A DNA stretch of 64,000 nt. It comes from Ruditapes philippinarum. Taxonomy: Eukaryota. The DNA is taken from assembly GCF_026571515.1 (NCBI RefSeq), contig NW_026852366.1, forward strand, positions 124,001 to 188,000, in the 5' to 3' direction. Below are positions 1,607 to 64,000 of this stretch, piece after piece. The notes under the pieces are model-generated. The model was not told the origin of the DNA and searched no databases. It saw only the letters and a program-made list of their open reading frames with translations. The translations under genes and the position numbers were made by a program. The first letter of the stretch is position 1. Every line of letters begins with the position of its first letter.

Positions 1607-2925
1607 CATAGTAATTCTTGTTATTATCGATACTATCTTCATCGTTTAATCCTACATTTCCGCGCTTGCAAGTAGCAAGATGTGTTTACTTAACAAGTTT
1701 GTTAAGTGTAAATTAATGTTCACATTTCAGTTTATGCTTTAAATGTCTGTATAGTTGACTAAGAGTTATAATATTTTGGTATATTTTTTATTCTTATTGA
1801 TCTAAAAAATTGACACATCGTCACTAAATGGTATTCGTTTTCAACCAAAGTAATGCTACATTTAGTGCACTGTTAAATCGTGTTTATCAATATTACGATG
1901 TTTGACTTCTTATATCAACAAGTCAGGGACAGAGTGTATTAACCTACATAATGCATTTCAATAAATTACATTGTTAATTAAATACAGTTAAGGCATAAAT
2001 TTATCCATGGACAATTCGTGTTTGGAGAAGCAATATGTATTTTATTTTGCCATTAAACCCCACTTGAATGTATTGATCTTTTGATTTACATTTGAAATAT
2101 CAGAATAGTTCCACAAATACGAAAACCAAGATCATCTTATCATTCTTACACCTCAAAAGACCGTTTATTTGCAAACACATCATTAACATCAACAAATTTC
2201 TTAATCAATATTCATCAATGAATCATGATTGTTTTTTAACTTTTGAAAAAATATTTTAACAATCTTGATTTCTATATACACATACCAAGGAAATCTTCCT
2301 AGATTAATTGATTAACAAGCCTATTTTAGAAATTTAGCGGGCAAACATTAAATCTAGTTAACGACTTATATAAGATTGCACACCTCATTGAATTCTTTTG
2401 TCTTATAAAAGTAAATATACTATTTGGTGACACGGAAGTTCGTTTGTTAATACATTGGATTTAATGAATTGTTGATAAAACCATTTAGAGCAGTTAGAAG
2501 CATGACACAAAAAGTTTATTTTTGGATAATCATGTATATGTTACGGATAAGTCTAGGTAATTTTAAAGAAAGTATCTTTCAAAATTTGTATAGATAAATA
2601 ATATGTATTTAATAAATCTTGCATCCATAAGTATAAAATTTACAAAATTTCAAGTATATAACTATCTTTAACATTAACGTAAATACTTATTATTTCAATG
2701 ATAACCTACTTTCTAGACGATGCATTTCCTAATCGCATTGGAAAGTGCTTTTAATATTTTTTCTAAACTGGTCCATGCTTTGCGTTTCTATTTCGTTATC
2801 TATTTTATTTTTAAAGATGTCACTGTTTTGCGCCAGTACATAAAATGCTGGTTGTCATTAAAATTATTCTTCAGAAAGGGTTGAAGTATATTGGAATTAA
2901 AACTAAGGCTATTTTCCTGACATTA

Positions 2926-4712
2926 CTGTCGTAATCGATTTTTCTTGCTGTAAGGTTTGGAGTTACTTTTCGTGCACGTAAGTACGCAAAAGAAGAACGT
3001 CTTTTGGTTATTAAAAAGATATTACAAAATGCCGGTTAATACCAATAAAATCAATTTTATAATCTATTTTGTTTCCGGTCGTACATTCGTAAATACATTC
3101 TCTTATCTGAACGGAATGTATCACTAAAACATGTATAAAGCAAACATGATAACAATTTGTATCTATATTATCTATATTATCTCGATTACAGTTATTCGAT
3201 CAGATATTCTGGAACTATTAAATGAAGAAGCATGATTGTGACTCATATAAGGTTCAAACCAATGATCTATGGATGATTTTTGATACATTGTGCATCTTTT
3301 AAAAAGATATCAATATTTGTATTATTCATTAGCGGGACATAAAATATGATTTTTATTTAGTGCAGACAGCAGACGGCTATGACGCAAAGTCAGTAGGGGT
3401 AATAATAGGAATAGTTCTAATTCCTTTAGTGATAATAATGGTAATTGTCATCATAATTGTCATATGTTTGAAGAAGAATTGGCAAAGTAAAATACATCAA
3501 AGACGAAGAAGTAGAAGAAGCAGAGAAACAAAATCAAGCACAACTAGAACTGTTCATCAACGGGAAACAACAACTACTGGTAAAAATATGCATTAAATAT
3601 TTTCATTGCAATATTATACTCAGTAATTAAATAACGCATTCTTTCGCAAATCTTGCAAACGCCGAGCACTAATATATATATTTGTTAAAACATTAATTTA
3701 AACATTCAAATATTAATAAATTATGTATATTGACAGACACACCAATTGAAAGATTACCAGACATTCAAGAAGAAGACGACACTGCTGGATTGTCTTATAC
3801 GAGCATAACAGATCAATCTAAAGTTACACTTTTTCAAAAAGATACAGTGTCAAGAGATGGTAACGAAGAAAAAGTAGAAAGTGACGAAGAAAAAGTAGAC
3901 AAAGATAAAGTTAACAAGACACAAGAAAAATGTTCAATAGAAATAGAAAGAGTATAGTCAGAATCTGAAGAGCCAGGATCTTCTGAGATAAAAGAAGAGC
4001 CATGTCCATCTGGAGAGGATTTTATCGAAAACACCAGATTGGAAAACGACCCATGTCAGGGTATAAAAAGTGAAGTATCCATTATGCGTGTGTTTGAAAA
4101 TGAAAGTATTTTGATGTACCGTATTTGAATTCTACAAAAAATATTGTCATTGAGTACGACCCGGCTATGACATACAAAAGGGAACGAGAATTGAAATCAA
4201 AAAGTGACGATAGTCTCCATTTAACGTGTATAAGATGTAAAGAAAATGACATCGCTCCTAGAGATTTTGAATTTACCCGAGACGACAGTGACTTGAATCT
4301 CAAATCTCAAAGTAAGATAGAAATTGACGCACAGTTAGAAACAAAGATAACAAGTAGTTCTGAAGGCACATTACTAGACGATAAGAAGAGAAATGCATTG
4401 AAAAGAAAATCATCTTTAAAATACAAAGTGACAAAGAATTCGATTCAATGGAATTTCAATTATGTATCTCCGTATGCATTAACAGATAAACAAAAGCGCG
4501 AAAATAATGAGTTAAAACTCAAAATTCAGAGGCAAAGAAAACAGGCATTGAGAAGAAAGTTCTTCGAGAAAGAGAGAAAGCAGTATGAAAATCATTTAGC
4601 ATTTGAGAAATGGAAACGACAGAAACACGAGACAAATTTTAAACATTATAGACAAGACATATGGTCCATTTACAGAACAAAATTAGATAGCAATATACAC
4701 TGGTATCCTTAG
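2926..4712 (+). pseudogene. Gene A: pseudogene of the 3-exon ectodomain-less single-pass membrane protein
   Basis: Exons 2926-2977, 3361-3579 (TM: GVIIGIVLIPLVIIMVIVIIIVICLKK) and 3737-4712. Compared with gene B: start ATG>CTG (2926), in-frame TAA (2932), TAG (3955) and a frameshifting deletion near 4112. Confidence 0.8.
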
Positions 4713-9742: not shown

Positions 9743-11777
9743 AAAATGTGATATGAATAGGCTAACAGTATATTGAATGATTGATGTTTCAAATTCTGTA
9801 TTTTTAGGTTATTAAATACAAAAATATAATTCGAGTTTGTGGCATCAAATAGATGAAGCAGTATAGGAATAAGATATAATATTCTGATTATTACAATCTA
9901 AAAACAGTGACCGTAACAAAACAAAACATTTTCATATCTATATGTACGTATTTCTTTGTACGCTTTCTTTATATGCATGATTATGACGTCACGTTAAATT
10001 ATACTTATGAATACTGCCGTGCAAAATCATTTCTGTAGAGTGGAAAATAATCTTTTAATGTATAATATATTGGACAATCTTGGGGATCTTGTTTGTTAAT
10101 GAAAAGAGTCATTATTTAGAAAACTTGACTCCATTATATTGCCTTTTTATATTCCGTGTACACTTTCCAATATATCATCATAAAATTAATGAAGGTTGTT
10201 GTGTTTAGTTTTTCTATTAATAATAACTTATGTTACATGATTACACAGATGTTTTCATGATTTTCCACGTAAGTTTCTTTTTTTGTAAATGCATAAATTG
10301 CAAAACATATTAATATATTTATATTTATATGGATTGCATTTATCATCCAATATAACAATTGCATTTATAATCCAATATGACGAGTGCAGTGCAATATCTT
10401 ACTAATAGGATGGAGAGTTATTGTATCAAAATGATTCTTTTCATTGTTATTTACGCGAATGACCATACTTTGCAAATTTAAATTTGCTAATATGTACTTC
10501 AGTCATAGTAAATTTTGTTATTATCGATACTATCGTCATCCTTTAACCCTACATGTCCGCACTTGCAAGTAGCAAGATATGTATACTTAACAAGTTTGTT
10601 TAGTGTACATTAATGTTTACATTTCAGCATATGCTTTAAATTGCTGTATAGTTGACTAAGAATTGTAATATTTTGGTAGGTATTTCATTCTCATTGTTTT
10701 AATATATAGACACACCGTTTTCAACCAAAGTCATACTACATTTAGTGCACTTTTAAATCGTGTTAATCAATAGTTTGATGTTTGTCTTATATCAACAAGC
10801 CATGGACAGAGTGTATAAACCTTCATAATGCATTTCAATAAGTACATTGTTAATCAAATATAATTAAGACATTTATCTAAAGAAAATTCGTTTTTAAAGA
10901 AGCAATAAGTATTTCATTGCACCATTAAACCCCATTTGAATGTATTGATATTTCAATTTACATTTTTACATTTGAAATATCAGTCTGAGAATAGTTCCAT
11001 AAAACGAACACTAAGATCATCTAATATCTAACCCCCAAAAGACCATCAATTTACAAATAATCATTAACATCAACAATTTCTTAATCGTTATTCATCAATG
11101 CATCATGCTTGTTCTTCAACTTTTGAAAAGATTTTAACAATCTTGTTTTCTATATACACTTACAAAGGAGGAAGTCTTCCTAGATTAATTGTTAAGCAAG
11201 TCCATTTTTGAAATTTAGCAGGGAATCAGTATATTTAGTTAACAACTTGTATAAGATTACACACCTCATTGAATACTTTTGTCTTATAAAAGTTATTATA
11301 CTATTTGGTGACACGGAAGTTCGTTCGTTAATACATTGGATTTAATGAATTGTCGATAAAATAATTTAAAAGCATGACACAAAAAATTAATATATGGATA
11401 ATCATGTATATGTTACGGATAAGTCTAGGTAATTTAAAAGAAAGTATCTTTTAAAATTTGTATTGATAAATAATATGTATTTAATAAATCTTGCATCCAT
11501 AAGTATCAAATTTACAAATTTAAAAGTATCTTACTATATTTAACATTAACGTAAATACTTTCTAAAAGATGCATTTCCTATAAATCGCATTGAAAAGTGT
11601 CAGAAATATTTTTTCTATACTGGTCCGCGCTTTGCGTTTCCATTTCGTAATCTATTTTCAAAGATGTCACTGTTTTGCGCCAGTACATAAAATGCTGGTT
11701 GTCATTAAAAGCATTATTCAGAAAGATATGGGTGGAATAATATTGGAATTAAAACTAAGTCTATTTTTCTGCCGTTA

Positions 11778-13703
11778 ATGTCGTTATCGCTTTTTCTTGC
11801 GGTAAATTTTGGAGTTACTTTTCGTGCACGTAAGTACGCAAAGAAAGAACGCCTTTTGTTTATCAAAAAGATAGTACTAAATGCCGGTTAATACCAATAA
11901 AATCAATTTTATAATCTATTTTGTTTCCGGTCGCACATTCGTAAGCGAAATACACTATATATGGACGGAATGTATCACTATAACATGTATAAAGCAAACA
12001 TGATAACAATTTGTTTTTATATTATCTCGATTACAGTTATTCGATCAGATCTTTTGAAACTATCAAATGGAGAAGCATGGTTGAGGCTCATATGAGGTTC
12101 AAACCAATGATCTATGGATGAGTTTTGATACATTGTACATCTTTAAAAAAATATCAATTTTGTATTATTCATTAGCGGGACATAAAATATGATTTTCATT
12201 TTAGTGCAGACAGCAGACGGCTATGACGCAAAGTCAGTAGGGGTAATAATAGGAATAGTTCTAATTCCTTTTGTTATAATAATGGCAATTGTCATCATAA
12301 TTGTCATATGTTTGAAGAAGAATTGGCAAAGTAAAATACATCAAAGACGAAGAAGTAGAAGAAGTAGAAGAAAGCAGAGAAACAAAATCAAGCACAACTA
12401 GAACTGTTCATCAACGGGAAACAACAACTACTAGTAAAAATATGCATTAAATATTTTCATTGCGATATTATACTCAGTAATTAAAACGCGTTCTTTCGCA
12501 AATCGCACTAATATATATAATTGATAGTATTAAAGATTTCTATTTTAATTTTTGTGGCCACCTGTATAATAATGCATTTTTAAGTGATTTCTGATTCCAA
12601 ATCCTGAATTTTAATCATCCTTTGAGATTAACACGTTGAATATTTCGTTTTTTTTTAAACATCAATTTAAACATTCAAATATAAATAAATTATGTATATT
12701 GACAGACACACCAATTGAAAGATTACCAGTCATTCAAGAAGAACACGAAACTACTGGAGTGTCTTATACGAGCATAACAGATCAATCTAAAGTTACACTT
12801 TTTCAAAAAGATACAGTGTCAAGAGATGATAAAATGGGTGAAAGTAACGAAGAAAAAGTAGAAAGTGACGAAGAAAAAGTAGACAAAGATAAAGTTAACA
12901 AGACACAAGAAAAATGTTCAATAGAAATAGAAAGAGTAAAGTCAGAATCTGAAGAGCCAGGATCTTCTGAGATAAAAGAAGAGCCATGTCCATCTGGAGA
13001 GGATTTTATCGAAAACAGCAGATTGGAAAACGACCCATGTCAGGGTATAAAAAGTGAAGTATCCATTACGCGTATGTTTGAAAATGAAAGTATTTTGAGG
13101 AAAGATGTACCGTATTTGAATTCTACAGAAAATATTGTCATTGAGTACGACCCGGCTATGACATACAAAAGGGAACGAGAATTGAAATCAAAAAGTGACG
13201 ATAGTCTCCATTTAGCATGTATAAGATGTAAACAAAATGACATCGCTCCTAGAGATTTTGAATGTACCCGAGATGACAGTGACTTGAATCTCAAATCTCA
13301 AAGTAAGATAGAAATTGACGCACAGTTAGAAACAAAGATAACAAGTAGTTCTGAAGGCACATTACTAGACGACAAGAAGAAAAATGCATTGAAAAGAAGA
13401 TCATCTTTAAAATACAAAGTGACAAAGAAGTCGATTCAGTGGAATTTCAATTATGCATCTCCGTATGCATTGACAGATAAACAAAAGCGCGAAAATAATG
13501 AGTTAAAACTCAAAACTCTGAAGCAAAGAAAACAAGCATTGAGAAGAAAGTTTTTCGAGAAAGAGAAAAAGCAGTATGAAAATCATTTAGCATTTGAGAA
13601 ATGGAAACGACAGAAACATGACAAAATTTTTAAACATTATAGACAAGACATATGGTCCATTCACAGAATGAAATTTGATAGCAATAGACACTGGTATCCT
13701 TAG
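11778..13703 (+). CDS. Gene B: 3-exon ectodomain-less type I membrane protein; exon 2 is frameshifted as assembled
   Basis: Exons 11778-11829 (MSLSLFLAVNFGVTFRA, donor gtaagt), 12205-12433 (TM) and 12706-13703 (intact tail ending WYP). Exon 2 is 229 nt versus 219 nt in A (extra agtagaagaa), giving a stop at 12399. Confidence 0.7.
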
Positions 13704-15058: not shown

Positions 15059-17579
15059 ATGACGCTTAAAATTATTTTGTGGATTTATATTTTACCAATA
15101 TGCCGAGGTAATTTTAAAGGATCTATATTAATATGTTTATTATTTTCTGCACTTCATTTTATCCTAGCATTACTCAAATATTTTTTTTTATTTACAAGTT
15201 GTAAGCCACATAAAACCAAAGTACGTCAAATTATGCCTAATGGTTTTTTCCTTTGATAAAATATAATTCATGCAGATTCGACCAGTTTCATATCTTTTAA
15301 TAGATAGATAACAAAAAATAAAAAAGAACAAATTTATACTTGATACTACATAATATTCTTGAAAGTTATATTCAAAGTGCATGTAACTGAATTGAAAATT
15401 GAACATGCATGAACTTAAAAATGATTGAATTACGGAGGCGTCCTGGGTGACCTAACGTTTTCGCTATAAGATATATTACCATCCTCCAGTAAACTAGATC
15501 CAAATAAGATAAATTTCGATAAAGATATTTTTCTTTGTCAAGAGTTGGATAAGACTGAATTTATTTGATATGGGCACTATGTTATAGACTATGAAATGGG
15601 CAATTCAACTAGCCCTGGTAGACATTTATTTTTGTTGTTGTTGTATTTTTTTGTTGTATTTTCCTGAGATGCTCCACTTTTTCATGCCTCATGAATATTC
15701 TCTACTTGCTCTTTTAATCAAAGCCGTTTGATATGATTTTAATTTACCGATTAACAGAAAGAAATGTCATTTGTTTATTAAAATGTGTGTTGTCGCATAC
15801 TGTCTGATATAGTCAGTTACTTTTGTATTATATATAATCTTGTTTATCCCGATCTCAAATTTATTAGACAGGATCTAAAACAAAAATGCATTCCATTCCA
15901 TGGATCCACACAAGATATTGAAATATTCATTGAATTACATAAGAACCTTTACAAAGTAATTATGATTAATGCAATGAGATAATTTACACGTATTTTCCTT
16001 TTGCTTTTTGTATTAATTTATCAATATATACATTGGTATATAATTTGCTGAAAGATTGCTATATGATTTATATTTTAGTGCAGTCTGCAAACGGTTATGA
16101 TGTGACGTCACCAGGAGCTATAATAGGAATCGTTCTAGTAGCTATTGTTATAATCACGGCAATCGTCATCATAGTTGTCATCTGCTTGAAAAAGACATGG
16201 CATAAACAACGAAGACAAAATACAATATCAAACAAGACAAAGAAAGTTCCAAAAAAGCCAACAACGATTTCAGGTGAATACAGTCATAACATAGAACTTT
16301 ATTAAAAGTTAAATATTCAATATATTCCCTTCTGTTAATCTTTATTGTAAACGGTATGCGGGTGCATAATAAAATGGTTTTCTCATTCATCTTATGTAAT
16401 ATGGTGTATCGTCTTTTTAAATAATTAGTTACAATTGTTGTAGAACTGTTATAATGTTATAATTTATGGTGCCATTTAAGTTGCAATCCATATTTTTATC
16501 TTAAATTAAAATGTAGATTGTGTTTGTTTAGAATTTCTTTTCACAATACATAGAAGCAATATGTAAACCTGAATTTATGTACATATATTTTAGAAACGCT
16601 TATCGAAAAATTGCCTGACATCCCAGAAGTAGACGAAAATATAAGTGCGTCTGGTGTAAGCGTAAGAGATGAATCTAAACTAACGTTTTATCAAATTGAC
16701 AATGAGGCAAGCACTACTGAAGCGGGTGACATTGATAAAGAAAATGAAAAAGTGGAACAATATGAAGCTAACAAAATAAGTGAGGATATGACTGTCTCAG
16801 TGAAAACCGATAAGATACAAACACAAACTGAAGAATCAGAAACATTTGAGAGCAAACCAGATGAACCAAAGTCATCTGGTGAGGATTTGGTAAAGACAAT
16901 CAACTGTGAAAGTGAAACAACACAGGATATAAAAAGTGAAGTATCCATCACACGTGTAATTGAAAATGAAAATATTTTGAGGAAAGATTTACCTTATTTA
17001 AACTCTACAGAACACATTTTCTCAGAATATGATCCAGCTATGACATACAAATCGGAGAGTGAATGGAAATCAAAGAGTGACGAAGGCTTACATCTACAAT
17101 CGATCAGATTTGAGAGAAAAAATATCGCTCCAAGAGCTTTTGAAATAACTCGCGATGACAGTGATTTGAATCTCAAATCTCAAAGTACGATAGAGGTTGA
17201 AATGCACGAAGCAACAAAGGTATCCAGTCGATCCGAAGGAACATTAACTGATGATATGAAAATAAAATCATTGAAAAGAAGATCATCTTTAATATCTAAA
17301 GTAACGAGCAAATCATTCCAATGGAATTTCGATTATATATCTCCATATGCAATGACAGATAAACAAAAGCGTGAGCGTTATGAGTTAAAGCTTAAAATTC
17401 GTAAGCGAAGAATGCTAGCATTGAAACAAAAGTTAGCTGATAAGGAAAGACAACAGTATGAAAATAAACTAGCATTTGAGAAATGGAAACTACGAAAACA
17501 GGGCGAGAAACATTACGAAGGAGACATTGGGTCTTTTAACAAAAGAAAATTTAATAAATATAATTACTGGTATCCGTAA
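15059..17579 (+). CDS. Gene C: intact 3-exon, 409-aa type I membrane protein with a minimal ectodomain, acidic tail and C-terminal coiled coil
   Basis: Exons 15059-15107 (MTLKIILWIYILPICR), 16079-16273 (TM GAIIGIVLVAIVIITAIVIIVVICLKK) and 16594-17579. Both introns are phase 1 GT-AG; 1230 nt open frame. Confidence 0.8.
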
Positions 17580-18378: not shown

Positions 18379-21300
18379 TCAAGTTGGATACCAAAATGTA
18401 CTTTTTGCTTTCTCATAAACATTTTCTAAGCTTTTATTTTTCGCCGTTGTTGTCTTCATTTTACTCTGTTTCCACTTTTCAAATGCTAACTGATTTTTTT
18501 GAAGTCGCTTCTCCTTTTCTTTTTCTTTTTGTCTTTTAATTTGCTCTTTCTTCTTTTTTAATTTTACTCTTTTATCAATGATATCTTGCTTTTGTTTATC
18601 AGACAAAGCGTATGGAGATCTGTACACAAAATTCCATTCGAGAGGTTCATAAGATATCTCTGAAGATATACGTGTCGAATTCCCTTTTTCTATAGCATCC
18701 ACTAAGTTTCCTTCAGACTTATGCATTCTGTCTTGTGTTTTAATTTTACTCATTGTTTTATTGTCTGTTTCCATATCCAGAGCACTATCATCTCTTGAAA
18801 ATACGAAAACATTTTTCTGATTATTTTTATTTTCTACACAGTCTATTATAATACTTAAGTCGCTTTTAGAAATGTTGTAATTTTCAGTCTCATTAGTCAC
18901 AGTGGCATCAAAGTCAGAAAAGATATTTTCTGTAGAATTCAAATGTGGCATATCTTTTCTTAATGGTTTTTCGATTTTCGTGATACGTGTTACAACTATT
19001 TCGTCACTTTTGTTTTCTATAATGTTCTCGACGTCATTTGAATCTAAAGGCTCGACAATATCATCAGTAAGTTTACTCCCACAAGAAACGTTCCCGTTCA
19101 ATTCCTGGTTAGCAATACAAGGTACACTGCATTTACCTAGTATTATATCCTCTTGGGTACATTCAGTTGTATTTTTATCAGAGTTTATGGTAGAAGTACT
19201 CATCTGCCCTGATGTTTTGTGATCAGGTCTACTCATTTCAAGTGATAAATCAAACATGTCATCATTGTTGAACTGCGATCGTTCGTCTTTATTATTAAGC
19301 GATTTTCCTTGTGTCGCGGTTTCGTCATTGGATGATAGTGTCGTTTGAATACCATTGTTAATATACAATTTCTCTTTGCTTGTTTGGTTTTTTGGTTCTT
19401 CGTTAATAACTTTTTCTAAAAGGTATGATTTTAAAGTGAATGTATGTTAGTTCAAACTTATACACGTATACTAACGATATAAATTCAATTTCGTATAAAC
19501 TTGTCTGTCAAGACTTTCTTAAAGTTAGCTAAGTTTTTACCGGTCATTTACCTAGTGCAAGGAGTCTCAATAATTAATTTATACACATTAAAATGTTGGG
19601 GTTAATTTAAGTTAATAAAACGATAGTACCTGAAATAATTTCTGATGTGTCGTGTTGAGATGAAATTCTTTTCTTCTGGTTGAAGGTACGTCTCTCTCGA
19701 CAGCATTTCCCTTTCAAACAGACGATCATATTTATGATGATAATTGTCAACACGAGTGTGCCTATGACAATGCCAGCAATTGCTGCAGCGGAAAGTCCAT
19801 TGCATGGTCCTTCAGCTCGTTTGGCTTGTAGAAAAACATCAGTAGATGTATTAATATTATATTGCTCTCATCACTCATATATGTATAAGTTAAATATATA
19901 TAAACAAAAACGATAAATACATAGACAAATGTATTTAAAATCTGATTGTCATGTATAGGAATTTCATGAAAATCATGTATACCAGAGGAAAAGCAAATAT
20001 TAAAATCTATCGAGATATTATACTTATAATATTGAGAGCAGACACTTAATCTGTATTTTGTGTTATTTCAGTGAGTACAGTCAAGCAAAACGGAATCTGT
20101 AATTCTTTCTTTTTATCATTTTTCTCAGGCACCCTATAATACACTGTACCAAAATATTTTTTTTCTCTAAGATTACATCATACATATGCAACATCCTTCG
20201 TTATCAGAATAATAGTAATAAATAGAAAATGTAAACTTAAGCTTTTAGCACAGTGATCTATTTATCTTTCAGACAAGAAAATAGTCTTTATGTTGGTATG
20301 TTGTTATGTACAAGAGCTTTTACTGATTCAATCACTTACGACACAGCTCTGAAAAAGAAACAAAAAACGAGAATTGTCATAGTGCACTAATTGAAATGTT
20401 TTCAATATCATATGAGAAACAACTGATTATGTTTTAGACAATACTAAAAACGATATTCATATCGAATCATTTGTAGAATAATGATAATCACTTATTACTG
20501 TTTAAGTCATACGATACTAAATGCGTACATATGGCAATAACAAATTTAACACAACTGTACATTACTTGCAATAAACACTTTAGTCCAAGGAATTTACCCT
20601 GTAAATATTTGTACTTACTTCTTGGTGTAAGTTGCATGTTCAGTCCTGCAGAAGACATATTGGAAGCAAACACCGGTTGTTCAGAAGGTGTTTGTCCCTT
20701 TCTACAGCTTCCTGGAGTTTGTGAAACATTGAGACTCCCGTCAGAGTTTCTACTTGATACCTAGATGCAATTTTAAAATGTTATATCTTTACAGCTCAAA
20801 TATTAGCAACAAGTAAAAATGACATTTATTAGAATTGTAGATGCGACAAATGATTCAAAATTGAAACGTGTTGCAAGGATCTAAACTCATATCAAGCTCA
20901 AATAGCAGGGAGATTTTTAATTTATTCTGCGTATATTTCTTAAATATCTTTTGCATCCATTTTCTGTTTTAAGTGCCCAAAATAATGAATGTAAAAATAT
21001 TCAAATTTTGTGACCTTACTGGAGTTAAGCTAAATAAAACATGTTTTCTGAAGACAGATTATATGAACGTACCATGCATGTAAATCTATGTGTACCATTT
21101 GAATGATTCACAAAATTATCTTCATTATACAGGGTGTGATATGTGTAGCTCCCAAATGTTAGAGTAAAAACACAAAATACACTTCCATTCCCTTAAACAG
21201 AAAGCACATTTATAGCGATTTATAATGTAACACATATGCAACCCTAAATAAAGCATGGCGATGAAAACGTAAAGCACTGAAGATAGATATGTATATTTCA

Positions 21301-24300
21301 GCTGCAAGAAAATATAGACAGATTTTGAATAGTTACATCATCTTGCCTGACGAACTTCAGCACATTTAAACTAAGAAAGAAGTAGCGTGTATTTTTATTA
21401 TGGATTTATTCAAATTACCAAGGAAACTGCATTATCATTTAATTAATGTAAAATAAGAAATTATGTAAATTTCGTAATCACTTAAAAGTAATTAACAAAA
21501 TCGTGTAGTTTTATCAATTGTTTTGAAAATAAGATGGCACAAAAAGGCAACCTTTTCTTGACTACTTCTAAAACATATCATTCAAATAAATATATGCTCG
21601 TAGTATTTTCGAATTATGTATGTTCTGTAAAGAAAATCCTAGTGGTAATGGTATTTGAGAATAATCTTTTCACCAGAATAAGAAATCTTTGTATCACAAA
21701 TAGTGTAGTTGAATGTCATTCGCTCATAATCTGTACAGACATCCCAAACTTCGTTACCAGTCCCGCAATAGCTATTCTTTGATTCTAAATCTTTGACAAT
21801 GTAAAAATATTCTCCGAAAAACGTCGATGGACATTCTTGTTTAGCGAACACTTCACTTCCTGAAAGATACAGTCTAACTCAGTTGGTAAGTACAATGTAC
21901 GAACATAGCTGATTATATCCTAACTTGTTTGTAGAGTAAAATACAAAAAATAGAATAAATGGAAAAGATAATATTTGTTATGCAGTAGTGCCATCACCGT
22001 CATATGATATCAATATGGTCATGCAAGATTCAAGATATATGTTCATAAACATTGACGCTGACCTTTACTACACTCCACTTTTGTTTTATACAAACGTTTC
22101 AATGATCAACTGAACCACGGTTTATGACATGAACAATTAAAAGTATAAAGTTTGTTTGGTATTTAGATTGTATCTATTTCAAATTTGTATTTATTTACTG
22201 TAAAGATCGCAATGCATGACAGATATGCGTTAGAAGCAAGCGTATTACTTATTATTAATCTGTATAATAAAGATAATTTGTATTATAGTTACAAATAAGT
22301 AAAATGATGAATCAACTGTAAAGAAAAATACATAATCCTTTTTAAATGTACATGTATATGTATTTTCAGAAAATATATTTGATGAATTTATATAGATATT
22401 AAACATTTGTTTGAGATTTCTTACCTAAATAATTATAGCAATTTTAAATATTTCTTTTGACTAGCAATGCAACGACACTCAATATAAACAGTAGATAATA
22501 TTTTATCATCTCTTAACACACAAATAGCTTTACCTTGTTTGACAAGTACATGATATTCGCCAGTTTCTGGAAATTCTGCTGCTTGTGAAGCGGTTTCTGT
22601 ACTAAAACACAGCTGTTTTACTGGATCAGAAACTACTGTAGACGAAAGAGTTGCCGATATCCTCTCATATCGATATTTCTCCTCTTCAGCTTAAAATAGT
22701 AACATCTTGCTTAAAGGGTAAATTGCATATATTCTGAATGAATATGATTACTTAATGAATAAGTTATTATTAATTAATCTTACAATGTACTCGTGGTTGT
22801 TAAGGTTATCTACTACTACTATTTTACTTTTAATTCATTTTTAAAACATACAAGTTGGCATTACCAATGCATTCTTATTGTACAAGCATGAAACGTAAAA
22901 TTACAACAAGTGAATTTAATGAAACATTATATAGTGTGATACAGGGTGGTGTATGCATTTACAGATTGCTCCAGTTTACTTACAGCTGTTTTGCAACACT
23001 TAACTGGTATTAAACAACCAGAGAATGGCATGATAATTTAATAAATCTGATTGATATATTGATTAATTTCAACTTACCCCACAAAAGATAGTAATAATAT
23101 GATTGCGATGTTATTTCTTTCAATTCCATACACAAGTAAGCTGTATACGGCGCACCTAGTATTGTGATGTTCTGTGTTTGTCTTAAACGTAAATTTTAAC
23201 TTTTAATGCACTAAATGTTAAAACATATGATGCTTTCTTGTAAAATCAACTGTTAGCCTTTGATTGCCATATACAAGTGAGCGGCAAAGTAAATAATAAG
23301 CATTGAAATGCTTTTCGTTTGTCAAAACAAATAATAAATCATATTGAAAATTCCTTCTATTTTTTCTGCTGACTGTTCCAAAGTCAGAAATACAAAGCAT
23401 TGTGAAAACTATGTTAAAATTGACAAATAAAGCGTAAAATTTGCAAACAAAATTGCAACAATGCCCTTTTCTATTTTAGCTCTGAAAATGTTAACCATAT
23501 CTACCGCGTTTGGTGCTACATGCACATAGTACGAGAAACTTTGTTGTCTCTAGTCGCTGACTCTTTGCTCTTATTTCTATTGAACTGATCGTAAAAGACC
23601 ATGTTAAAGATTAATATATTCAATTCCGATAAGTCGTAAATAGATAAATAAATAAAAGACCAATTTAAAGATTAATCAATTTCTATAACTTGTATCTAAA
23701 TGAATAAATAAAAGACCATGTTAAAGATTAATCAATTTCGATAACTCGTATATAAATGAATGAATGAATGAATGAATGAATGAATGAATGAATGAATTAA
23801 TTAATTAATTAATTAATGCCAATAATTGATAAACGTTTATTTTATCAGTTGACTATAATAGCAGAATAGTTTGATATTTTGTTATATTTCATGTACGTGC
23901 GACTTTAAAATGCAATGATTGAACAGAATAAGTAACATAGAATTCCTTACACCATGATGAGGAGGAGTTTCGTTGAATCAGTACTAGTATGCAGACATTC
24001 CCAATTCTCAAACAAGTCCCCGTTTTCTGTTTGAAATTCCCACCCTGTCATGTTAGTGGTGCTAAACTTCAGCTCCCCTTTATCGCTGTCAATCCAAACC
24101 GAGTTTTGGAATTGCTCCGGTAATTCACAAAATGAGGCGATCTCTGGAATTTGAATATTAATCACATCTTTACCATACTCATTACTACACTTCTTGCTAC
24201 TGATACATTTGTTTTCCACATTTATGTGGGTAAATTTAAAATATATCTTAATGTGGAGAATCTTCAACATCATTTGTTTCTAAACCAACTTTCAGGACAA

Positions 24301-24793
24301 ATGCCGTGAAGTTGGTGAAAGACTTACACATGCATGTAATATTATGATCATTTCTTGATTGTCAACCATGCCAGTCAATCAAGCCAAGTTCAGAATGTGA
24401 GTAACGTATACATAATATACATTTATATGGGCAAGGATAATAAAAGAACAATTAAAATGAAAAGAAAGCAAATAAAATCAAATTGATGACGACGACGGTT
24501 ATGCTGATGGTTATGAAGAATTTTCTTTCAATGCCCATCATAGAAAGATACGACAGGTATAATATATAAAAACTATATACAACTATTATTGTATCAGATA
24601 TTTTATTCCTAGATTAACACATAAAAAGGTATATTTGTATCAAATATAAAATTTGTACGTTAAAAAAAGATTATCTCGCACGTTGTCTTAAGAAATAAAG
24701 ATAATATTATATTGTATAATTTATAAGAAAATCAAAACACATACCTCGGAAAAGATGAATAATAAGGATCCACATATAAAGAAAAAATAACAT
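18379..24793 (-). CDS. Gene D: 10-exon, 729-aa type I membrane receptor-like protein (Cys-rich DUF7042-like ectodomain, TM, tail homologous to genes A-C)
   Basis: Exons 24793-24745, 24143-23951, 23181-23078, 22689-22534, 21859-21674, 21191-21073, 20760-20619, 20348-20340, 19824-19630, 19415-18379. All GT-AG, 2190 nt open frame. Exons 3-8 match gene E exactly in length. Confidence 0.85.
23614..23818. repeat. Triplicated ~60-bp unit followed by a (tgaa)n/(ttaa)n microsatellite
   Basis: aaagacca..ttaaagattaat x3, then tgaa x~9 and ttaa x~5. Confidence 0.8.
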
Positions 24794-25366
24794 TTTTGCA
24801 GTAGTTCATGTAAAATTCTTTCCATTACAAAAATATTTGTAAAATAGTCACTAACACAAAACTCCAAAGATCACGTTTCGGTTATCGATTTCGGGAAACT
24901 TAAGATAAGATAACTATTGTTTTAGGTACGACGACGGTATGCGAAAAACATAATTGTTTACAAATACAAATGTTAACGATAATTACTTTTAAATACCGGG
25001 GTCGATAAAAGTTCTTATTTAAATGCGTTGTTGTTGTTGTTTTGTCTTTTTTGCAATTTCCTATTGTTAATAAATTTTCAAATATATAGATAGCTTATAC
25101 ATTAAATCAATTTAAAAAAAAAACAAAAAAAAAAACACTCTCAGGGTACTTTGAAATCTAAAACTTTTTTTTATCGATGGCATATTTATGTACACTTAAA
25201 AACCCAAACCTATTGACGTTGAAAAAAGACACGCCTCATTTAGTTATAATACCTTTTGTTTTCATTGATTGATTGATATAGATCGCTTTTCCATAATGAA
25301 AACACTAGCTTTTGAATTTAAGTTAGATCTCGCCATGGACATTTTATAAGCAGGCTAACAAAAAAT
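24794..25366. promoter_or_regulatory. Putative bidirectional promoter shared by genes D and E
   Basis: Only 573 bp separate the divergent start codons. Inferred from position; no motif evidence. Confidence 0.55.
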
Positions 25367-28300
25367 ATGGAAGTTTTGATTTATTTAGGGATATTAAATA
25401 TTTTTCTCCGACAAGGTAATAACATAAGAATTTTTTATTTGTTTATTAATCATAACTTATTAGTTTGTGTTGTAAAATTGTTGACTTGGCGGACCTTGCT
25501 GAATTATTTTTTTTAATTGTGCATCTTAAGGTGTAATAAATTGCTTCAATCTGAATACATCCTAAATAATCTCTGCGCAAATCACCGTTTCCTTGAAGTA
25601 AATGTATATTTTTCAAGATACTTCTTTGATAGCTAACATGAGGTAGAAGCAGGGTTGAAGCAGTACCCCTGTTACCATGACATATATCAATTATGATAAA
25701 AAAGTAAGATCGCTAATTCAATTAGTTATACACAGGGGACGTACCATACTTGGATCGTATTACGTTGTTATAAAAAATAAGTAGAAGATTTCCATATAAG
25801 CTATACCATTTGTTCTTATTTCAGGAGCATCCGCAGCATGCACTTTACCTGAACAATTCCAAAACTCGGTTTGGATCGACAGCGATAAGGAGGAGCTGAC
25901 ATTTAGCACTACCAACATGACAGGGTGGGATTTTCAAACTTTAGGCGTTAGTACCGTGTATGAAGAATGGGAATGTTTCCATACCAGCAATGAAGGTTCA
26001 AAGCTATATCTTATAATGATGTAAGTTAAAAATGTATAGTTTCCCCAAACAAATAATTTGAAATATTTCAGTGTAACTGATGCTTATCTTCAAAGCACGT
26101 TGAAACATTTACTTTTTGTGTGCTTTATTTGTTAATTATTTTGTAATTGAGAGCAATATTACAGAACTTTCTTACTTTATTAACGAACTGTTTTTTTTTA
26201 AATGAGGCAATATAAGGTACGATATGCTTTTGATATAGATATTTTGAACTCTATAACTGTATTACGATTTGGATTTGATATACATGTATATATTTTAGAC
26301 TTATGCTATAATAATGGGGCACGATACTGATAATGTATCTGATAATTTCTAATGGAAAATCACGAGGCTAAAATGCTGCAAATTCATTGGTAGAATTTAT
26401 AAGGTGTTGAATAAATGTTATATCATTAGAGTATATTTCATATTTCAACATGACAAAAATGTCTTACTTACTTGATTTATTTCATTTTTCATTTTAGAAT
26501 TTTTCTCATGCTTCTTTCAATTTAAGTTAAGAATTTGTATTCAGTACAATGCAGATCATATTAAAGCTATATCAAATTACACATCTTTTATGAAATTCAT
26601 AAACCGATAAAATATTTTGTTCGGTTCTTGACAGAATTGTAACTAAAAATCATGGATATGTTACTTACATGTAACACACATGAAATTAGTACGTTAACAG
26701 AATTGAAATAGCTTGGACAAAATAATATATGTTTTCAACCATTTAAAATGATTTTATGCATGTGCCATCCCATTATAAGGAAAACGTTATACAAACACAT
26801 TTCATTCATCAAGGTATTTTAAATGTATTCGTTTCTAAACACTAAATTTGTTAACTCCAGGTGGCAAATGTATGTATGCAGTTGTGTACACTTTAAATCA
26901 AACACCTATGCTTAAACGTAAACTACATGTCATTTTGATAAGTTCAAAAAGTAACATTATTCTTTCACTGATATTCTGTTGCATTTTAATTATGGTAATT
27001 GGACGAGAATAACACACAACTTATTTTATAACAGAATTGCTTTAAGAGTTAAGATTCGCTAGTAGTATATTTTGTCCATGCTTGTTACCGATTTTGCTTA
27101 ATAAAAGTTAAAAAGGGGGCTTAGTTACATTTTCATACAGGAATGGTACGACGAAATCTGTTTTTGGTTTGGGTGAACAATTTCAATTTATAGCATGGAA
27201 AACGATATAACAATGACATTTTCCCGTAAGCACACATTATAACGTACGAAGTACTGCCTTAAATTTATTCATTTAAATGTACTTGAATCAAAGTTGTTTT
27301 TTAATATTCTGGTATGCAACGACTAACAGTTTATGATACAAGAAACTATTAATTGGATTAGATTTTATTATTTATTTCATAAAATTTCGTTTCAGACAAA
27401 CACAGAATATCACAATACTTCAAGAAACATATACAGCTTATTTGTGCATGGAGTTAACGGAAATAACCTCGCAATCATATTATTACTATCTCTTGTGGGG
27501 TAAGTGACAACAACTTAAATTCGAATTGATATGAACATCTGCCTCAAAATCAGATGGATACAGAAAAAGCACAATAATCGCCCATAAGAAATATGAAGTT
27601 TTGTGTCTGAAATGGTACAGGACAAAAGGTCTCATAAAAGTATATTTTATATGTTAAATTACCAATTCATTTAGAAAACAAAGCGTGGGATGAATAGGAA
27701 GTCAATTTGATGGTATAAAGTCCTAAGCACTGCGCCAGTTCATATATTTTGCAGTGTTTAAAAGAACTGTTTAGGTAGAATATGCTATAAACCTTTTGGT
27801 TTCCACTTGTATAAGTCGCGTTTTGTATTTTCATCGCGTGTTTACACCACTTAACATTAGCGGTAAGATGAAAAATATATTCAATATTTATTGGATGAAG
27901 TTGATTTCTAAGTACAAGTTATAACGGGTATGTTTCGCAAAAAAAAAAACTGAGTATATAGCATAATTCATTTCGTCGTTCCAAAAACGAACCTAGACGT
28001 GTGTTTTTGTTTTCTGTTTTAATTTATACCAATGCAATAATTTGTTTCTGAACTAGCGGAAGAGGAAAAATACCGTGAAGAGAGAATATCAACAACGCTA
28101 GCTTCTATGTCGGTATCGGACCCTGTACAGCAGTTATGTTTTACCACAAGTAACGCTGCCCAAGCAGCGGCATATCCGGAAACTGGTGAATATCATATAC
28201 TTGTAAAACAAGGTAAGGCTTTCAAATAGATATAAATGAAACTATGTACTATTACATATATATACATTGTTTGTTAATAAATATATTTCGAAGTCTCTGC

Positions 28301-31300
28301 AGACTAAAATAGAGAAATGTGAATCTCTAAAGAAAGCCCAACACGGCAAAATTGAAAATGTTGCAGGCTCGGTTTGATTGAGCCTGTTCATGGACGGTAC
28401 TGTCAAGTGCAAACTACCGTCCACGCCCCCCTAGCACTGGCTTAAGCAGAATTCAACGTTTAACATGAAGTGACACCGTCAAACTTTGCATGGGATTTTC
28501 TTAACATGTGTCTGTAACAAAAATAGTTAAATATACTTTTGTTTTATAACCATTACATGGAAAGTCTAACCTCTCGTCATGTTCCAGGCATTGTGTTGAC
28601 CGATATGTATTACATGTATGTGAACAAATAAATGTGAACCACTAGAAACTTCTGCTAGCATCGAAGGAAAAATGTTCCTCGAATATTTGCTTGTGATTGA
28701 TACCCCCATCTCCCCAAAATAAATTTCGGACGGATCAAGTGTTATAATATGTGCCGCGTCATGACAAAACCAACATAACGGGTTTGCGCAGTCTGATCAG
28801 GATCCATGCTGTTCGCTATCACTTTCTCTACTTGTAATAGGGCTTGTAAGCGAACAGCATGGATCCTGATCAGACTTCGCGGATGCGCAGGCTTGTCTGG
28901 ATTCATGCTGGTCGCAAACGCATTACGATGGTTTTGTCGTGACGCGGCTCAATTATTTGGAATTGCAATAGAGGTATTGGCATGCATACTTAGTCTAGTA
29001 CTTTGAGTGAATACGACGTGCTCAAATTCAGACAGAAAGTAGTGACTTTAGGTATCAGAATATAAACATTTTCAAATATCGGTGAACGATTTTAACTCTC
29101 TATTATATATAAAAAAATAATCACACATTGTATATCATTTCATATGTTTAAGAATATTATAATCATTTATTGCTAAGGAAGTGAAGTTGCTGCAAAACAA
29201 GAATGTCCATCGACTTTTTTCGGAGAATATTTTTACACAGTAACAAATAAAGACACTAATACAGACTACTGTGGGACTGGTAGCGAAGTTTGGGATGTTT
29301 GTACAGATTACGAGAAAATGTCATTCAACTACACAATTTGCAGTACTCAGATTTCATATTCTGGTAATATGTTAGGCATAGCATTTAATTTACATTTTAA
29401 AATCAATATTTTTATAAATGTAAGATTATTTAGTTAAACATGATATGCTGTGTCTAGTTTGAAGTGCTCACTGTCAACTAACTTATTTGAGCTGTGATCT
29501 ACTAGAAATCTGTATTTTACTTTAGTTAGTGGTTTGATTCACCCCATCAATCACCTTTTACTGGTCGTTTCTGTGTAGATTAGTGAAAGAAGGTTTCTTT
29601 TTTAAACAATAAATACATTTTAAACAATATTATCGTAGGGTCTACCTTTATGCAGACAAGGAGGGCGTTAAACCCTTCAAAATGTTTTGTTTCCTGTCTA
29701 TATCAACCAAGAGTGTTTAAATTATGCTGAATACTTAATTTTCTTGAATATGAACTACCTACAATTATGTAGTGTGTATTCCTTATTCAATGCATTTATC
29801 GCTTTTTTCGGTCATACAATATTTACCTTCTTCGGAAGAGAATGATGATTCTAAATCAACGTAATGTTTGTAGCCATTTCTAAGAAGATGAGTATTTTAA
29901 GTTCAACCAATGCGATTAATGTGTCTATTTCTTGATCATTGTTATGTCTAATGTCTATTCCAGTGAGTTTTTATTTTCATCGCCTTAAATTTTTGACACC
30001 ATCACATTTATTTCTTTTGGGCATACGTGATTTTTTCTGGTTTGGATATCACTGTAAAGGTAAACGGCGACTCTCAAGGAAGACATCAGGTGCCCCTCCC
30101 TTATTGTTTCATGCACGAGCAGAAACCTCTGTAAAACCTCAGTGAAACAAGCCCTCTGGTTAACTAGATGGATAGCGCTTCACATGTAAGACTCAAAAGG
30201 TCCTTATGGGGTTTCAAACCCGAAGCCATAAGGGGATAATTGCTCGAAATCAACGAACAGTTGGCCACCAAAGCACATGTTTTTCAAATTTCAATTTTTA
30301 TCACATCATAACAATATTATGATAATCTTCTCGTTATTTATTTGTCTTGTAATTTCATTTTAAGAAAATGGCAGTGTGTTTTGTGTGTTCAGTTTGACAT
30401 CTGGTAGCTACACATATCACACAGTGTATAATGAAGATAATACTGTGAACCCTTCAGGTGGCACACATAGGTTTACATGTATGGTGAGTGACTTAATGAT
30501 TGTAAATCTTTTCATTAAGAAAATGTATACATGTATACATGTATACTGTTTCTCATTAAGATGTTTTGACGGACATTTCATGATGTCAATCAAAATATAT
30601 AACTTATTTTAGTAACTGTAGTTAAGTGTATCATCGGCATATTTTATTCCTACATACTTTCGCAGATACAAAAATTTGCTTTTTTCATAAGGATCGTTTT
30701 CGCGGAGAGAAGTTTTCGCTCATTAATAGTGACTGTGATATTTCATATATTTTAAACAACTCGTTACAAGAAATATCGGCCATCAACCTGTAAATTATGT
30801 AGATATTAATGCAATACTCGTAATCGTTGGGTCTTGAAAAAAATGAAAACACTTTCACGGTTTTTGACATACAGTGTATAAGTAATTGAGATGATTCATT
30901 AATCAGTAAAAGTCATTTTTCTGCCGTGTGTTTCAAATAATGTCATGTTTCTTTTATTACGTTATGAAACAAACGCACAAAAAGAAAATTACTTCTTAGA
31001 TATATGGCAATATACGCTTACAATAAAATCATCAGGATAAACTTCTTACATATTCTCATAATGATAATTCATATCCATCTATAGGTATCCTCTATAGCAA
31101 CTAATGGAAGTTTAACTGTCTCACAAACTCCAGGCAGCTGTAAAAAGGGTCAAACACCAATCGATCAACCATTGCAGGCATATCAAAACACTCCTGATGG
31201 GCTGAACATGCAGCTTACACCAAGAAGTAAGAGTAATTCAATGTCTATCAAAATCGTCTTAGGATTGAAAATGTTCTAGACTCCTAAATAAAATAGGTCT

Positions 31301-34300
31301 TAAAAATAGATACCGGTAAAATAAAAAATCTTAAAGAATGTACACATGGCTGAATTGGAAAAAAACTGATTAAGTCTGTACTTGGATAGAAGTCGTTAAT
31401 GCACTCACCCTAACACCGGCTTAAGCAGAATGCAATGGAATGTTTAAGTATGGAATAAATAAATCGTATGCACAAAAAATGGTTCATTTTTGCTTAGTTA
31501 GAAAAAAAATCTGTAAACAAAGTGATCCCTCGGAATCATTTAGCACAACAAAATTACAAGAGAATAGCAGACTAGGTTTGATTGAGTATGTACATGAGGG
31601 ATAATGAATAAGTGCAACATCCCTCACGACCCCGAGCACCGGCTTGAGCGGTACTCAAATCTCAACACTTAATTGTGCTGGCATCAATGATCCCGAAGGA
31701 CAAGAGAAATATAACACCTGCTGTTGTGAAGTATAAAAATCTGGAAACAAAGTGATCCCTCGGAAGCATTAATCACAACAAAATTACAAGAGAATAGCAG
31801 ACTTGGTTTGATCCCTCACGCCCCATAGCACCGGCTTCAGTGGTATTCAATTCTCAACAATAATAGTGCTGGCATACCATAAAGCAATTGCGTTATTTCA
31901 CAAAATAAGTAATAAAAAGAGCATCGAAACACAAGGCTATCTGATTTTTACGAGGGGGCGTATCCCCCGAGTATTAATCAGATTGCCGAGTGTTTTGATG
32001 TTCTTTCTCTTTTGAATCATAGTCAAACATATAATCACGTTCCCTGTTGTCACAATATGAAACTCCAGAAAACAATAACCAATGAACGAGCATCTTAATA
32101 TTATATTTCTATTGCTTCTCCTTTCTCTGCCGTCACAATAAGTAAACCCCAGCAAAAATGAACCAATCAATGGACATGCTCTGGAGTGCGGGTAGCTAAT
32201 AGTACTGCACTCCAGTTAACACAATGTGCATGTATATATGTATACGATTTAACTCTGACACATTTTCAACAGAAAGGTCCTAAAACTATGATACAATTTT
32301 AGTTAGTTATTATTTAAGTTTTATTAGGAAACTGGTACTATATGTAACGATGTCTTTCATAAGCTTTAAAATTGTTTATTTTTCTCTTTCAATGCAGGGT
32401 TATGTCGTGAGTAACATTTTATTACATCCTCTCATCTTTTGTTATGAAAATAATGACACGCCTTCAAGATTAATCAACTTATAAAAATCATATATGTTAA
32501 AATCAAACCTGTTCTCCCTCATGCGTCATAAATATTCTAGACATTATGATTATACAAAATGTATTAACAATGTTAAAAGACAGCTTCGCAAAATTATCGT
32601 TTCTCCATATTTCTTTTGTGTAATTCTTATTATGAAAAAATAACTTTAATTCCAAACCTTTTTCAATAGCTAAAACAGACGAAAGTAGTAGTAGCGGGTT
32701 GTCAACTGGTGCAATAGTCGGCATCGTTTTTGGCATTCTCGTTTTAATAGCAGCCGTTATTCTGATGTGTCTGTTGTGTAAAAGAAAGAAAGGGAAACAG
32801 AATAAGAAAGAACAAGAAAATGAAAACGTGAACACTGTAGAATCGCCGAGGTCTAAGAAACGTATGTACGAGCAGACATTGCAACAACATTACAATTAGT
32901 TTGAGTGTCTATTAAGTAAATAAGTAGTATGCACGCGTATAGTGACAACATATAGAGCAAACATTTAGAAAAGTAGTCCACACTGAAAATAAAGCTTGAA
33001 TTTAGAATAAAACAGCTTAGTTGAAATCAATTTTCATTTTATCAATACAACTGTTTCTATTCACGAAATTAGTCGAATTTTGTGTTTTTAGTCCGAATTA
33101 ACCTAAAAATAGTTACACTATACATTTGGTTTGACTCTATAAAGGGTTTTTCTATTTTGATTTTATGAGGTGACAGTCCGGACATTTTGCACAGATCAAC
33201 AATAATAAAGTAAGACATTTAAACTTGCACCATTTGCTTACGGAATTTGGTTGCACATGGAAATTGTGAAGTATTCCTTTATAATGCCTTGTTTCACATA
33301 CGAAAAGATTTAGTATCATTAATATTGCAGTGTGTATTTTCTTTTCAATTCATTTAAATATATTTACTTATTAATACTCCGTAACTTTTTAACAAATAAT
33401 TATTAATGTTTTGTTTTATACTGTATGAAAGAAGCATATCATTTACACGATATTAGCACTGCTAGCATGACAGGTATACATGTAATATGAAAAACAAAAA
33501 TTGTATTTGTCATTTTCAACTTAGTTTAACCAAATGCATAGTAATTTGATAACTGTGCATCTTACACACTTTCCGTTCAATGCATGAGCTGGTTCTCATA
33601 CTGCGTTTATTGCTTATCTAAGTACATATGTAGGATAAAACAAATATAATTTACCCTTAAACTTTTTTTATTTTTATTCTAGTTTCAGTTGATATTGACA
33701 ATATACCTCATCAAAGGTCACCTCTCTGGGTTAACGGACCACAAGGAATAGCCCCTATTGAAACAAAGTATAATGGCGATCACAGAATTTCAAAATCTCC
33801 AGTATTAGACAAACAATACAATCCCTTTTCAGTGTTTCCATTTGGTAAAGGAAAGAAAAGTAAACAAGAAGACACGCAAAACGGACATGAACTAACTGTC
33901 TTTCAATTAGATGGAAATGATAACATCAAGGAGTATCCTTTGAGTAAAGAGAAAAATATACCAAATGACACCAATTTGTCTGACAGTCAAAAATTGAAAA
34001 CAATTACAATGGCTAATAACCAAAAGTCAGAAAGACTTTCTATTGAAGATTTAGAAAATAATAAAGTTATACCGACAAGACCGGACAATTATGCAATGCC
34101 TGTTTTGAGGGCAGAGACAAGTGACAAAGATAGTTCTCAGATATTTCAAACAGGAAGCAATGGTAACACATCAAGAAATTCAAATGTAACACCGAAAGCT
34201 ATTGTGTTACAAACAGATGATAATGCGATATATCCGTCACATACTCAACTTTCATCGCATACTCCAAAAGTTAATTGCGAGAAACAATCAAAGGAAGCTA

Positions 34301-34434: not shown

Positions 34435-34869
34435 CGGAAAAGTTTAAAAAAACGAAAATGAAAAACCTGAAAAAAAGACTGGAAAGCTTCTAAGGGAAAC
34501 CCCAAAAACAAGCGGAGAAAGTGACACAGTCCTAAAATTGTCAAAAAAAATGGAAAAAGAAAGTATAAAAAGTGTCGAAAAAAAAATCACCGGGAGGGGA
34601 GAAATGGGTGAGCAAACCTTTGAAAAAGAGGGAAAAAAACAAAATTACGGTTTTTTCAAGAGTTAAAAAAAATCTGAAAAAAACTAAAAAGCCCAAAAAT
34701 CGTCACAAAATTCCAAAACCCAAAAAGAAAAACTAAAAAAGAGGGGGCCAAACTCTCAATGATTTATTTAAATCAAAGTCCCGTTGGTTTCATTAAAAAA
34801 ATTTAAAAAAAGGGAAAATTTTCAACGAAGAATCCCAAAAATCACTGAAAAAACCCAATCTTATTTGAA

Positions 34870-63800: not shown

Positions 63801-64000
63801 AAATTTTTTGAACTTTTTGTTTCAGCACTCATACTTTTGTGGAAATGTATGTATAGCCATTATTTTGGCTACAAATATGAAATATGCTATTTTCAAAAGG
63901 TTAAGACTGAATAATTTCAGTGCCTTGAATATTGTATGAAAATGGTTTGTGTTAACACTGAAAAGTTTAAAGGGCTTTGAACTTAAAATGAAAACAATAA

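Follow-up and report, generated by a model that had tools for sequence, protein, structure and literature searches.

Receptor pairs whose extracellular parts are kept alike by gene conversion are known from vertebrate immune receptors of the immunoglobulin (Ig) type. The SIGLEC11 and SIGLEC16 genes lie head-to-head, their extracellular exons are homogenised within lineages and their cytoplasmic parts differ (PMC5701461), and in CD300A/CD300C conversion maintains the extracellular similarity while the signalling parts diverge (PMC12447643). Here we describe two genes, designated D and E, in a 64,000-nt window of the Manila clam (Ruditapes philippinarum) genome (contig NW_026852366.1; all gene positions are coordinates of this window), which are a variant of this pattern in an uncharacterised family. 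They encode predicted single-pass membrane proteins with similar ectodomains and different cytoplasmic tails, and conflicting ectodomain and tail trees support homogenisation of the ectodomain.

The likeness to the vertebrate pairs is partial. In SIGLEC11/SIGLEC16, recent conversion spans ~3 kb of genomic DNA and goes with relaxed constraint, whereas D and E have a dS (synonymous substitutions per site) ≈1, diverged introns and a dN/dS ratio of 0.18; the SIGLEC genes are 9 kb apart and have the Ig fold, compared to 573 bp and predicted tandem β-barrels for D and E (SIGLEC values from PMC5701461). At ~370 and ~640 aa the D and E tails are also long, and the two proteins have no conserved immunoreceptor tyrosine-based inhibitory (ITIM) or activation (ITAM) motif and no charged transmembrane (TM) residue, unlike CD300A/CD300C, Ig superfamily members described in PMC12447643 as differing in ITIM versus adaptor coupling. 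What D and E share with paired receptors is similar, linked ectodomains that group within species against orthologous tails (in two venerid species). Conversion tracts including introns, and the pairing of an ITIM with an ITAM or charged TM segment, were not found, and we therefore do not file D/E as a Siglec-11/16-type member.

D (minus strand) and E (plus strand) are arranged head-to-head, with ATG codons at 24793 and 25367 separated by exactly the 573 bp given in an earlier first-pass annotation of the window. Each gene has ten exons with canonical AG/GT splice ends, of which the first nine measure (D/E, in nt) 49/49, 193/196, 104/104, 156/156, 186/186, 119/119, 142/142, 9/9 and 195/192, and the tenth encodes the tail. 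The identical lengths previously reported for exons 3–8 (104/156/186/119/142/9 nt) were confirmed, and the identity counts for exon 3 (30/34 aa) and exon 4 (39/52 aa) proved exact. The span assigned to the pair (20340..32406) needed extension: it ends at the micro-exons, while D continues to 18379 and E to ~35500 with their TM and tail exons. The D exons join in phase into an open frame of 729 aa. Over ectodomain exons 2–7 the two proteins are identical at 222/300 aa (74%), compared to 32.5% between the tails of D and its neighbour C, in agreement with the annotated order of these similarities. Six nested inverted-repeat pairs centred at ~25,000 (95–190 nt, 73–89% complementary) coincide with the exons. 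The introns had been described as unalignable, which held for eight of the nine, whose scores did not exceed the highest among 30 shuffles, while intron 1 was one point above its best shuffle (32 vs 31). It did not hold for a single block of ~70 nt in intron 2, upstream of exon 3 (positions 27317-27395 and 23182-23262), surrounding a CTAAC branch-point-like site; in a position-restricted test 0/2000 shuffles reached its score. The E introns also contain high-copy dispersed repeats (28300-28950 and 31500-32250), which dominate read mappings and among which is a 32-nt inverted-repeat element (28786-28880).

The last exons of D and E were said not to align, and profile comparison bears this out. 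Hidden Markov model (HMM) scores between D-type and E-type tails were negative in both directions, and HHalign gave a probability of 0.2% for D versus E, compared to 99.9% for the D/C control; judged by their sequence profiles, the two tail types are unrelated, so that tail homology, which the annotation had named as a refuting outcome, did not emerge. A homology hidden by the frameshift in the E assembly was rejected, as none appeared with the intact proteins P0012, P0013 and P0017. Unrelated tails are ordinary in the ectodomain family, since 68 tails (64 of at least 60 aa from 150 listed clusters, plus four from this locus and Mercenaria) form 51 unrelated groups. D-type tails are held by D, C, B and A, and by Mercenaria P0004 (with ectodomain) and P0009 (without). 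A third species has an exon 7 resembling that of D, and also a D-type tail, on ENA contigs that are both 5512 in length and probably one and the same. In Mactra antiquata, P0017 combines an E-type tail (E=3e-19 to P0012) with the same kind of ectodomain as in D and E; no Mercenaria protein was recovered with the E-tail query, a fast-evolving part which also missed the Mactra ortholog. Among seven tails there was one ITIM-like match (D only, absent from its ortholog P0004) and no ITAM, and the TM segments contained no charged residue. The D-type tails share a conserved basic coiled-coil C-terminal core (18379-18750 and homologous tails); they resemble the CCDC181 and CCDC34 clusters of the ESM Atlas (0.87 and 0.84), which is under the 0.9 bar and is not confirmed by Pfam.

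Because Mactra has the E-type tail and Mercenaria the D-type tail on an ectodomain, both architectures likely predate the Ruditapes–Mercenaria split, placed at 171–194 million years by the TimeTree values cited in PMC12229300. Mactridae lies outside Veneridae. The annotation had offered tail swapping or ectodomain homogenisation as explanations of the pair. The swap need not be assumed, since outgroups have both architectures and a turnover of tails is usual in this family; homogenisation is favoured by the separate ectodomain and tail phylogenies that the annotation had suggested, which conflict. In the D-type tail tree, P0009 joins C and B (96/95) and P0004 joins D (80/92), and a Ruditapes-only clade of D, C and B is rejected (p=0.0002). 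The ectodomain quartet consisted of R. philippinarum (Rp) D and E with Mercenaria P0004 and P0002, that is, two venerid species only. Over its 201 columns, 14 sites group the sequences by species, compared to two and one backing the cross-species pairings, with a four-point bootstrap of 0.996. Approximately unbiased (AU) tests reject both RpD+Mercenaria P0004 (p=0.002) and RpE+P0002 (p=0.0007); P0024, which has a long branch, was excluded from the AU-test tree and is in the other tree, with the same grouping. The D-type tails thus follow orthology while the ectodomains group by species, and this conflict supports homogenisation of the ectodomain after the Ruditapes–Mercenaria split. The interpretation offered in the annotation is thus supported in part.

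The proportion of differing synonymous sites (pS) between the D and E ectodomains is 0.54 (0.47–0.63; dS 0.97; dN/dS 0.18), compared to the saturated values of 0.75 for the TM exon and 0.75 (0.65–0.87) for the D/C tail core. Recent gene conversion was considered and dismissed, as the longest identical run is 23 nt (p=0.56) and the silent-site test gave p=0.75. The exchange is therefore judged to be old, given dS ≈1, the lack of a tract or of heterogeneity between exons, and the diverged introns.

Transcript evidence came from Logan contigs of four presumed RNA runs, each from a different study (four of six such runs were used), and the joints are those among the 15 listed of 91. The E exon 3-4, exon 4-5 and TM-tail joints were present in all four RNA-type runs. 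For D, no splice joint was among the 15 listed of 91; its contig pieces end at predicted exon borders, and in two of the four runs one contig depth (19.4; 14) is common to variants in exons 6 and 7 and in the TM exon, which gives indirect support to a single transcript carrying the ectodomain and TM exons. Both genes are covered in the same four runs; as these are whole runs, which speak to neither cell type nor level, such coverage is no sign of the co-regulation that the annotation proposed. The apparent stop in E at 34434 is an assembly error: in 3/4 runs the contigs have one base more than the assembly after 34413, along with many further indels, RNA-type contigs of ~1840 nt continue past 34434, and the database protein P0012 reads on for 547 aa. 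RefSeq P0003 covers the D micro-exon and then stops by read-through, and P0011 (the E tail) is truncated by assembly indels; the four RefSeq models, P0003 with P0005 and P0001 with P0011, are likely two genes split at the 9-nt exon, so that the annotation can be corrected by rejoining them into D and E. Stretches rich in single-base indel assembly errors were seen at 34413-35500 and 131-946. Four raw-read runs labelled RNA had flat low depth, no listed splice joints and GATC loose ends, and were not used for expression; allelic RNA variants of D were also considered as E letters, with 3/10 matches and no pattern.

The reading we favour, with a probability of about 0.6, is that D and E are old paralogs whose exon 2–8 block passed from one of these inverted neighbours to the other once Ruditapes and Mercenaria had split, each gene keeping its own tail, with a similar ligand and different outputs as the result. 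The exchange would have proceeded by gene conversion or by a single replacement of exons 2–8, leaving each gene its own unrelated TM-plus-tail exons. Since this block lies between phase-1 introns, its loss or replacement would keep the frame. The head-to-head inverted layout would permit pairing and exchange, which may since have stopped or become rare, with purifying selection now holding the similarity. D and E would then likely share an extracellular ligand, or have similar ones, and be coupled to different cytoplasmic partners; as to their signalling outputs, we can offer only a guess. Several observations weigh against this reading. The RpD+RpE node has a support of 85–89/92–93, below the starred level, and there is some residual cross-species signal (12 vs 5 sites, p=0.14). 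The per-exon dS and conversion tests that the annotation had called for were run and revealed no heterogeneity among exons (p=0.35) and no silent-site tract (p=0.75), the introns being diverged, so that the conversion itself is not seen directly. Mercenaria P0004 comes without an N-terminus and P0002 is known without tail or position, so that hidden paralogy is possible, and the ancestry of exon 1 is weak. Ligand specificity may differ, as 26% of the residues do. At the transcript level, the joining of the D ectodomain to its TM exon rests on equal contig depth in two of four runs, the E micro-exon joint was absent among the 15 listed of 91, and RefSeq splits both genes near the 9-nt exon.

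The evenness of dS across exons 2–7 and the lack of a tract would also fit one event, in which, after the Mercenaria split, an inverted duplicate of the 5' part of E acquired a D-type TM and tail that were already there; the two similar Mercenaria ectodomains would then stem from a separate local duplication. Ectodomain-less D-type cassettes do adjoin D, partial E-like copies exist on another contig (C563), and Mercenaria P0002 has a D-like N-terminus (Trp8-Ile9) and so may be a duplicate of D. However, an ectodomain is already present in P0004, the Mercenaria ortholog of D, which makes it probable that D has always had one, and besides P0004 just one Mercenaria D-type tail was found. Moreover, Trp8-Ile9 and the last five bases of D exon 1 recur in C but not in E, from which this exon differs at dN 0.52; the pattern suggests an internal block flanked on either side by D-type sequence. 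We regard such a tail capture as possible but unlikely. Still less probable is an ordinary old duplication, in which the ectodomain stayed under selection, the disordered tails and the introns changed through drift or replacement, and the grouping by species reflects hidden paralogy or a tree artefact. The dN/dS ratio of 0.18 and the free turnover of tails in the family (51 groups/68 tails) agree with this, as do the node support under the starred level and the use of two Mercenaria proteins only. However, the synonymous sites of the ectodomain are also younger than those of the TM exon or the D/C tails, the AU tests reject the orthologous ectodomain pairs, and long-branch attraction is unlikely with branches as short as these (0.09–0.22).

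It may also be asked whether the ectodomains are mainly secreted, the TM-plus-tail units being separate genes as in RefSeq, where P0001, P0002 and P0003 end at or before the micro-exon and P0005 and P0011 are models of their own; some contigs also cover E introns 8–9. This seems very improbable, as P0004 and P0017 are single models with ectodomain, TM segment and tail, the D phases join without a stop into the 729-aa frame, P0005 and P0011 begin at the end of the TM helix, D intron 8 contains no AATAAA or ATTAAA, and the contig pieces end at predicted exon borders with shared depth. A more ambitious extension of the favoured exon-block exchange, which we find rather unlikely, is that the locus is an independently evolved venerid paired-receptor module from a non-Ig tandem β-barrel family, co-transcribed, ligand-matched by repeated conversion across the inverted promoter-centred repeat, with two unrelated long tails lacking ITIM and ITAM, and with C, conserved and ectodomain-less, as an adaptor or dominant modulator of the D-type tail. 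Crossover between the inverted blocks may then flip the promoter segment from one tail to the other and would in this way account for the D-like N-terminus seen in P0002 of Mercenaria. If the favoured exchange of exons 2–8 did take place, the evolutionary logic of vertebrate Ig receptors would also work in a mollusc family with another fold and other signalling tails. The locus offers a natural three-way comparison (one ectodomain with two tails, and one tail with and without an ectodomain), useful for the function of a family of at least 283 sequence clusters.

The family was defined by the ectodomain (those clusters being found at E<=0.001). Pfam DUF7042 (PF23069) matches E with 43.8 and D with 37.5 bits (gathering cut-off 27) and is found in 81/89 aligned relatives; in the ESM Atlas, a DUF7042 cluster from molluscs lies nearest (0.96). 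In Pfam, which describes no function for it, DUF7042 accompanies DUF7043/DUF7044 in arthropod proteins. By a hydropathy rule, 76 of the 150 listed clusters have a TM segment, 57 lack one and 17 are fragments. An AlphaFold2 model of the ectodomain (89 sequences) reached a pLDDT (predicted local distance difference test) score of 94.8 and is nearly all β; both halves (22–167 and 178–320) can be superposed on barrels of the lipocalin/streptavidin-like kind (best Z 8.7, root mean square deviation (rmsd) 3.6, 115 aligned). The ectodomain is thus predicted to consist of two β-barrels, a model which fixes the fold class, not the function. Foldseek with this model returned nothing at E<=0.001, and neither a PDB sequence search nor metagenome scans gave a match. 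Differences between D and E were not significantly enriched outside strands (28/133 vs 46/163, p=0.18). APCDD1 is likewise single-pass with two apposed β-barrels, but has a small cytoplasmic domain (PMC10193966), compared to the long tails of D and E. It matches one barrel with Z 6.3 (rmsd 3.3, 114 aligned, 10% identity), ranks 18 among generic barrels with a Z within 1–2.4 of unrelated ones, and has no sequence match to the ectodomain; going by the model, it is an architectural analogue only. By fold analogy only, the ligand might be guessed to be a lipid or lipidated protein held in the barrel. A literature search, with most subscription journals outside its scope, found no paper naming DUF7042/7043/7044 or the four locus names, none on bivalve paired receptors with gene conversion, and none joining APCDD1, mollusc and shell. 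Distant family members were noted on seven other contigs of the assembly (G000: C3496, C11173, C14566, C13929, C2126, C1584, C12845), C3496 and C14566 carrying copies on both strands.

The neighbouring gene C, a paralog of D, consists of three exons forming an open 409-aa frame without an ectodomain. Mercenaria P0009 has the same layout, with 16 residues including Trp8-Ile9 directly before the TM stub. Exon 1 nucleotide identities are 30/49 for D–E, 28/49 for D–C and 24/49 for E–C. C was likely derived from a D-like gene by in-frame loss of the block, and would be a ligand-blind protein with a D-type tail. The related genes A and B lie within a ~8.9-kb tandem duplication (85-94% nt), with one frame break each, which may represent pseudogenisation or assembly error. 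The idea that A, B and C are alternative last exons of the ectodomain genes upstream was given up, since the latter come with a stalk, TM segment and tail themselves, and A, B and C each have an exon 1.

The start codons of A, B, C and E are each preceded, at a distance of 86–138 nt, by a 12-nt motif with a putative role in the promoter. There were five matches (<=1 mismatch) in 134 kb, compared to 0.9 expected, a chance figure that is generous because the motif was chosen from these same sequences; the fifth lies in a duplicate of the C upstream region. The motif ends in TCATT, which we take to resemble an initiator element. On the strand of D there was no match at <=3 mismatches, and the D and E upstream regions have no similarity above shuffles.

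Table 1. Coordinates of the genes and other features discussed, in window positions
Feature	Position	Strand	Remarks
D exon 1, signal-peptide-like, 49 nt, phase 1	24745..24793	−	N-terminus of RefSeq P0003 matches
D ectodomain exons 2-7	20619..24143	−	two predicted β-barrels, second = DUF7042
D exons 2-4	23951-24143, 23078-23181, 22534-22689	−	
D exons 5-7	21674-21859, 21073-21191, 20619-20760	−	
D micro-exon 8, 9 nt	20340..20348	−	holds last ectodomain Cys; in RefSeq P0003
D TM exon, 195 nt	19630..19824	−	
D tail exon, D-type	18379..19415	−	conserved C-terminal core with predicted coiled coil; in RefSeq a separate gene, P0005
E exon 1, signal-peptide-like, 49 nt, phase 1	25367..25415	+	matches RefSeq P0001
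E ectodomain exons 2-7	25825..31226	+	
E exons 2-4	25825-26020, 27396-27499, 28057-28212	+	
E exons 5-7	29178-29363, 30365-30483, 31085-31226	+	
E micro-exon 8, 9 nt, predicted	32398..32406	+	
E TM exon, 192 nt	32670..32861	+	joint 32861-33683 in 4/4 RNA-type runs
E tail exon, E-type, about 600–640 aa	33683..35500 (end approximate)	+	assembly frame broken from ~34413
Spacer between start codons, 573 bp	24794..25366	.	
Motif ACACRCCTCATT	25229-25240	+	138 nt before E ATG; putative promoter role
C exon 1, 49 nt, phase 1, signal-peptide-like, predicted	15059..15107	+	donor conserved in A, B
C TM exon, 195 nt (length as in D)	16079..16273	+	contigs in 4/4 RNA-type runs
C tail exon, D-type	16594..17579	+	covered by RNA-type contigs
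B, ectodomain-less, C type	11374..13703	+	TM-exon frame meets stop in this assembly
B parts	11374-11428 (55-nt exon 1), from ~12205 (TM exon), ~12706-13703 (tail)	+	
A, near-copy of B (85-94% nt)	2502..4712	+	tail frame broken in this assembly

Two further genes of the ectodomain family lie upstream, at C853:104001-124000 (the same contig) and at 132-653 of the window. Their exon 5 is ~45% identical to that of E, and they have a Thr-rich stalk, a TM segment and a third type of tail. They were duplicated recently (pS 0.09-0.15), and an orphan copy of the tail is present at 9212-9742. A different contig (G000:C563:22877-58333) carries decayed or poorly assembled E-like copies, namely three of exon 1, two of exon 2 and a single tail-less series of exons 3-9. 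The 3-nt indel in exon 2 was rejected as a marker of D, as an E-like copy on this contig has the short form. The contig also matches positions 50161-64000 of the window at 70-95%. Within that region, 50584-50949 and 53019-53345 are presumably exons of a superfamily-1 helicase resembling IGHMBP2/SMUBP-2. Tandem arrays were found at 5100-6950, 45300-46690, 56750-57760 and 62915-63775, with units of ~145, 166, 163 and 161 nt, respectively.

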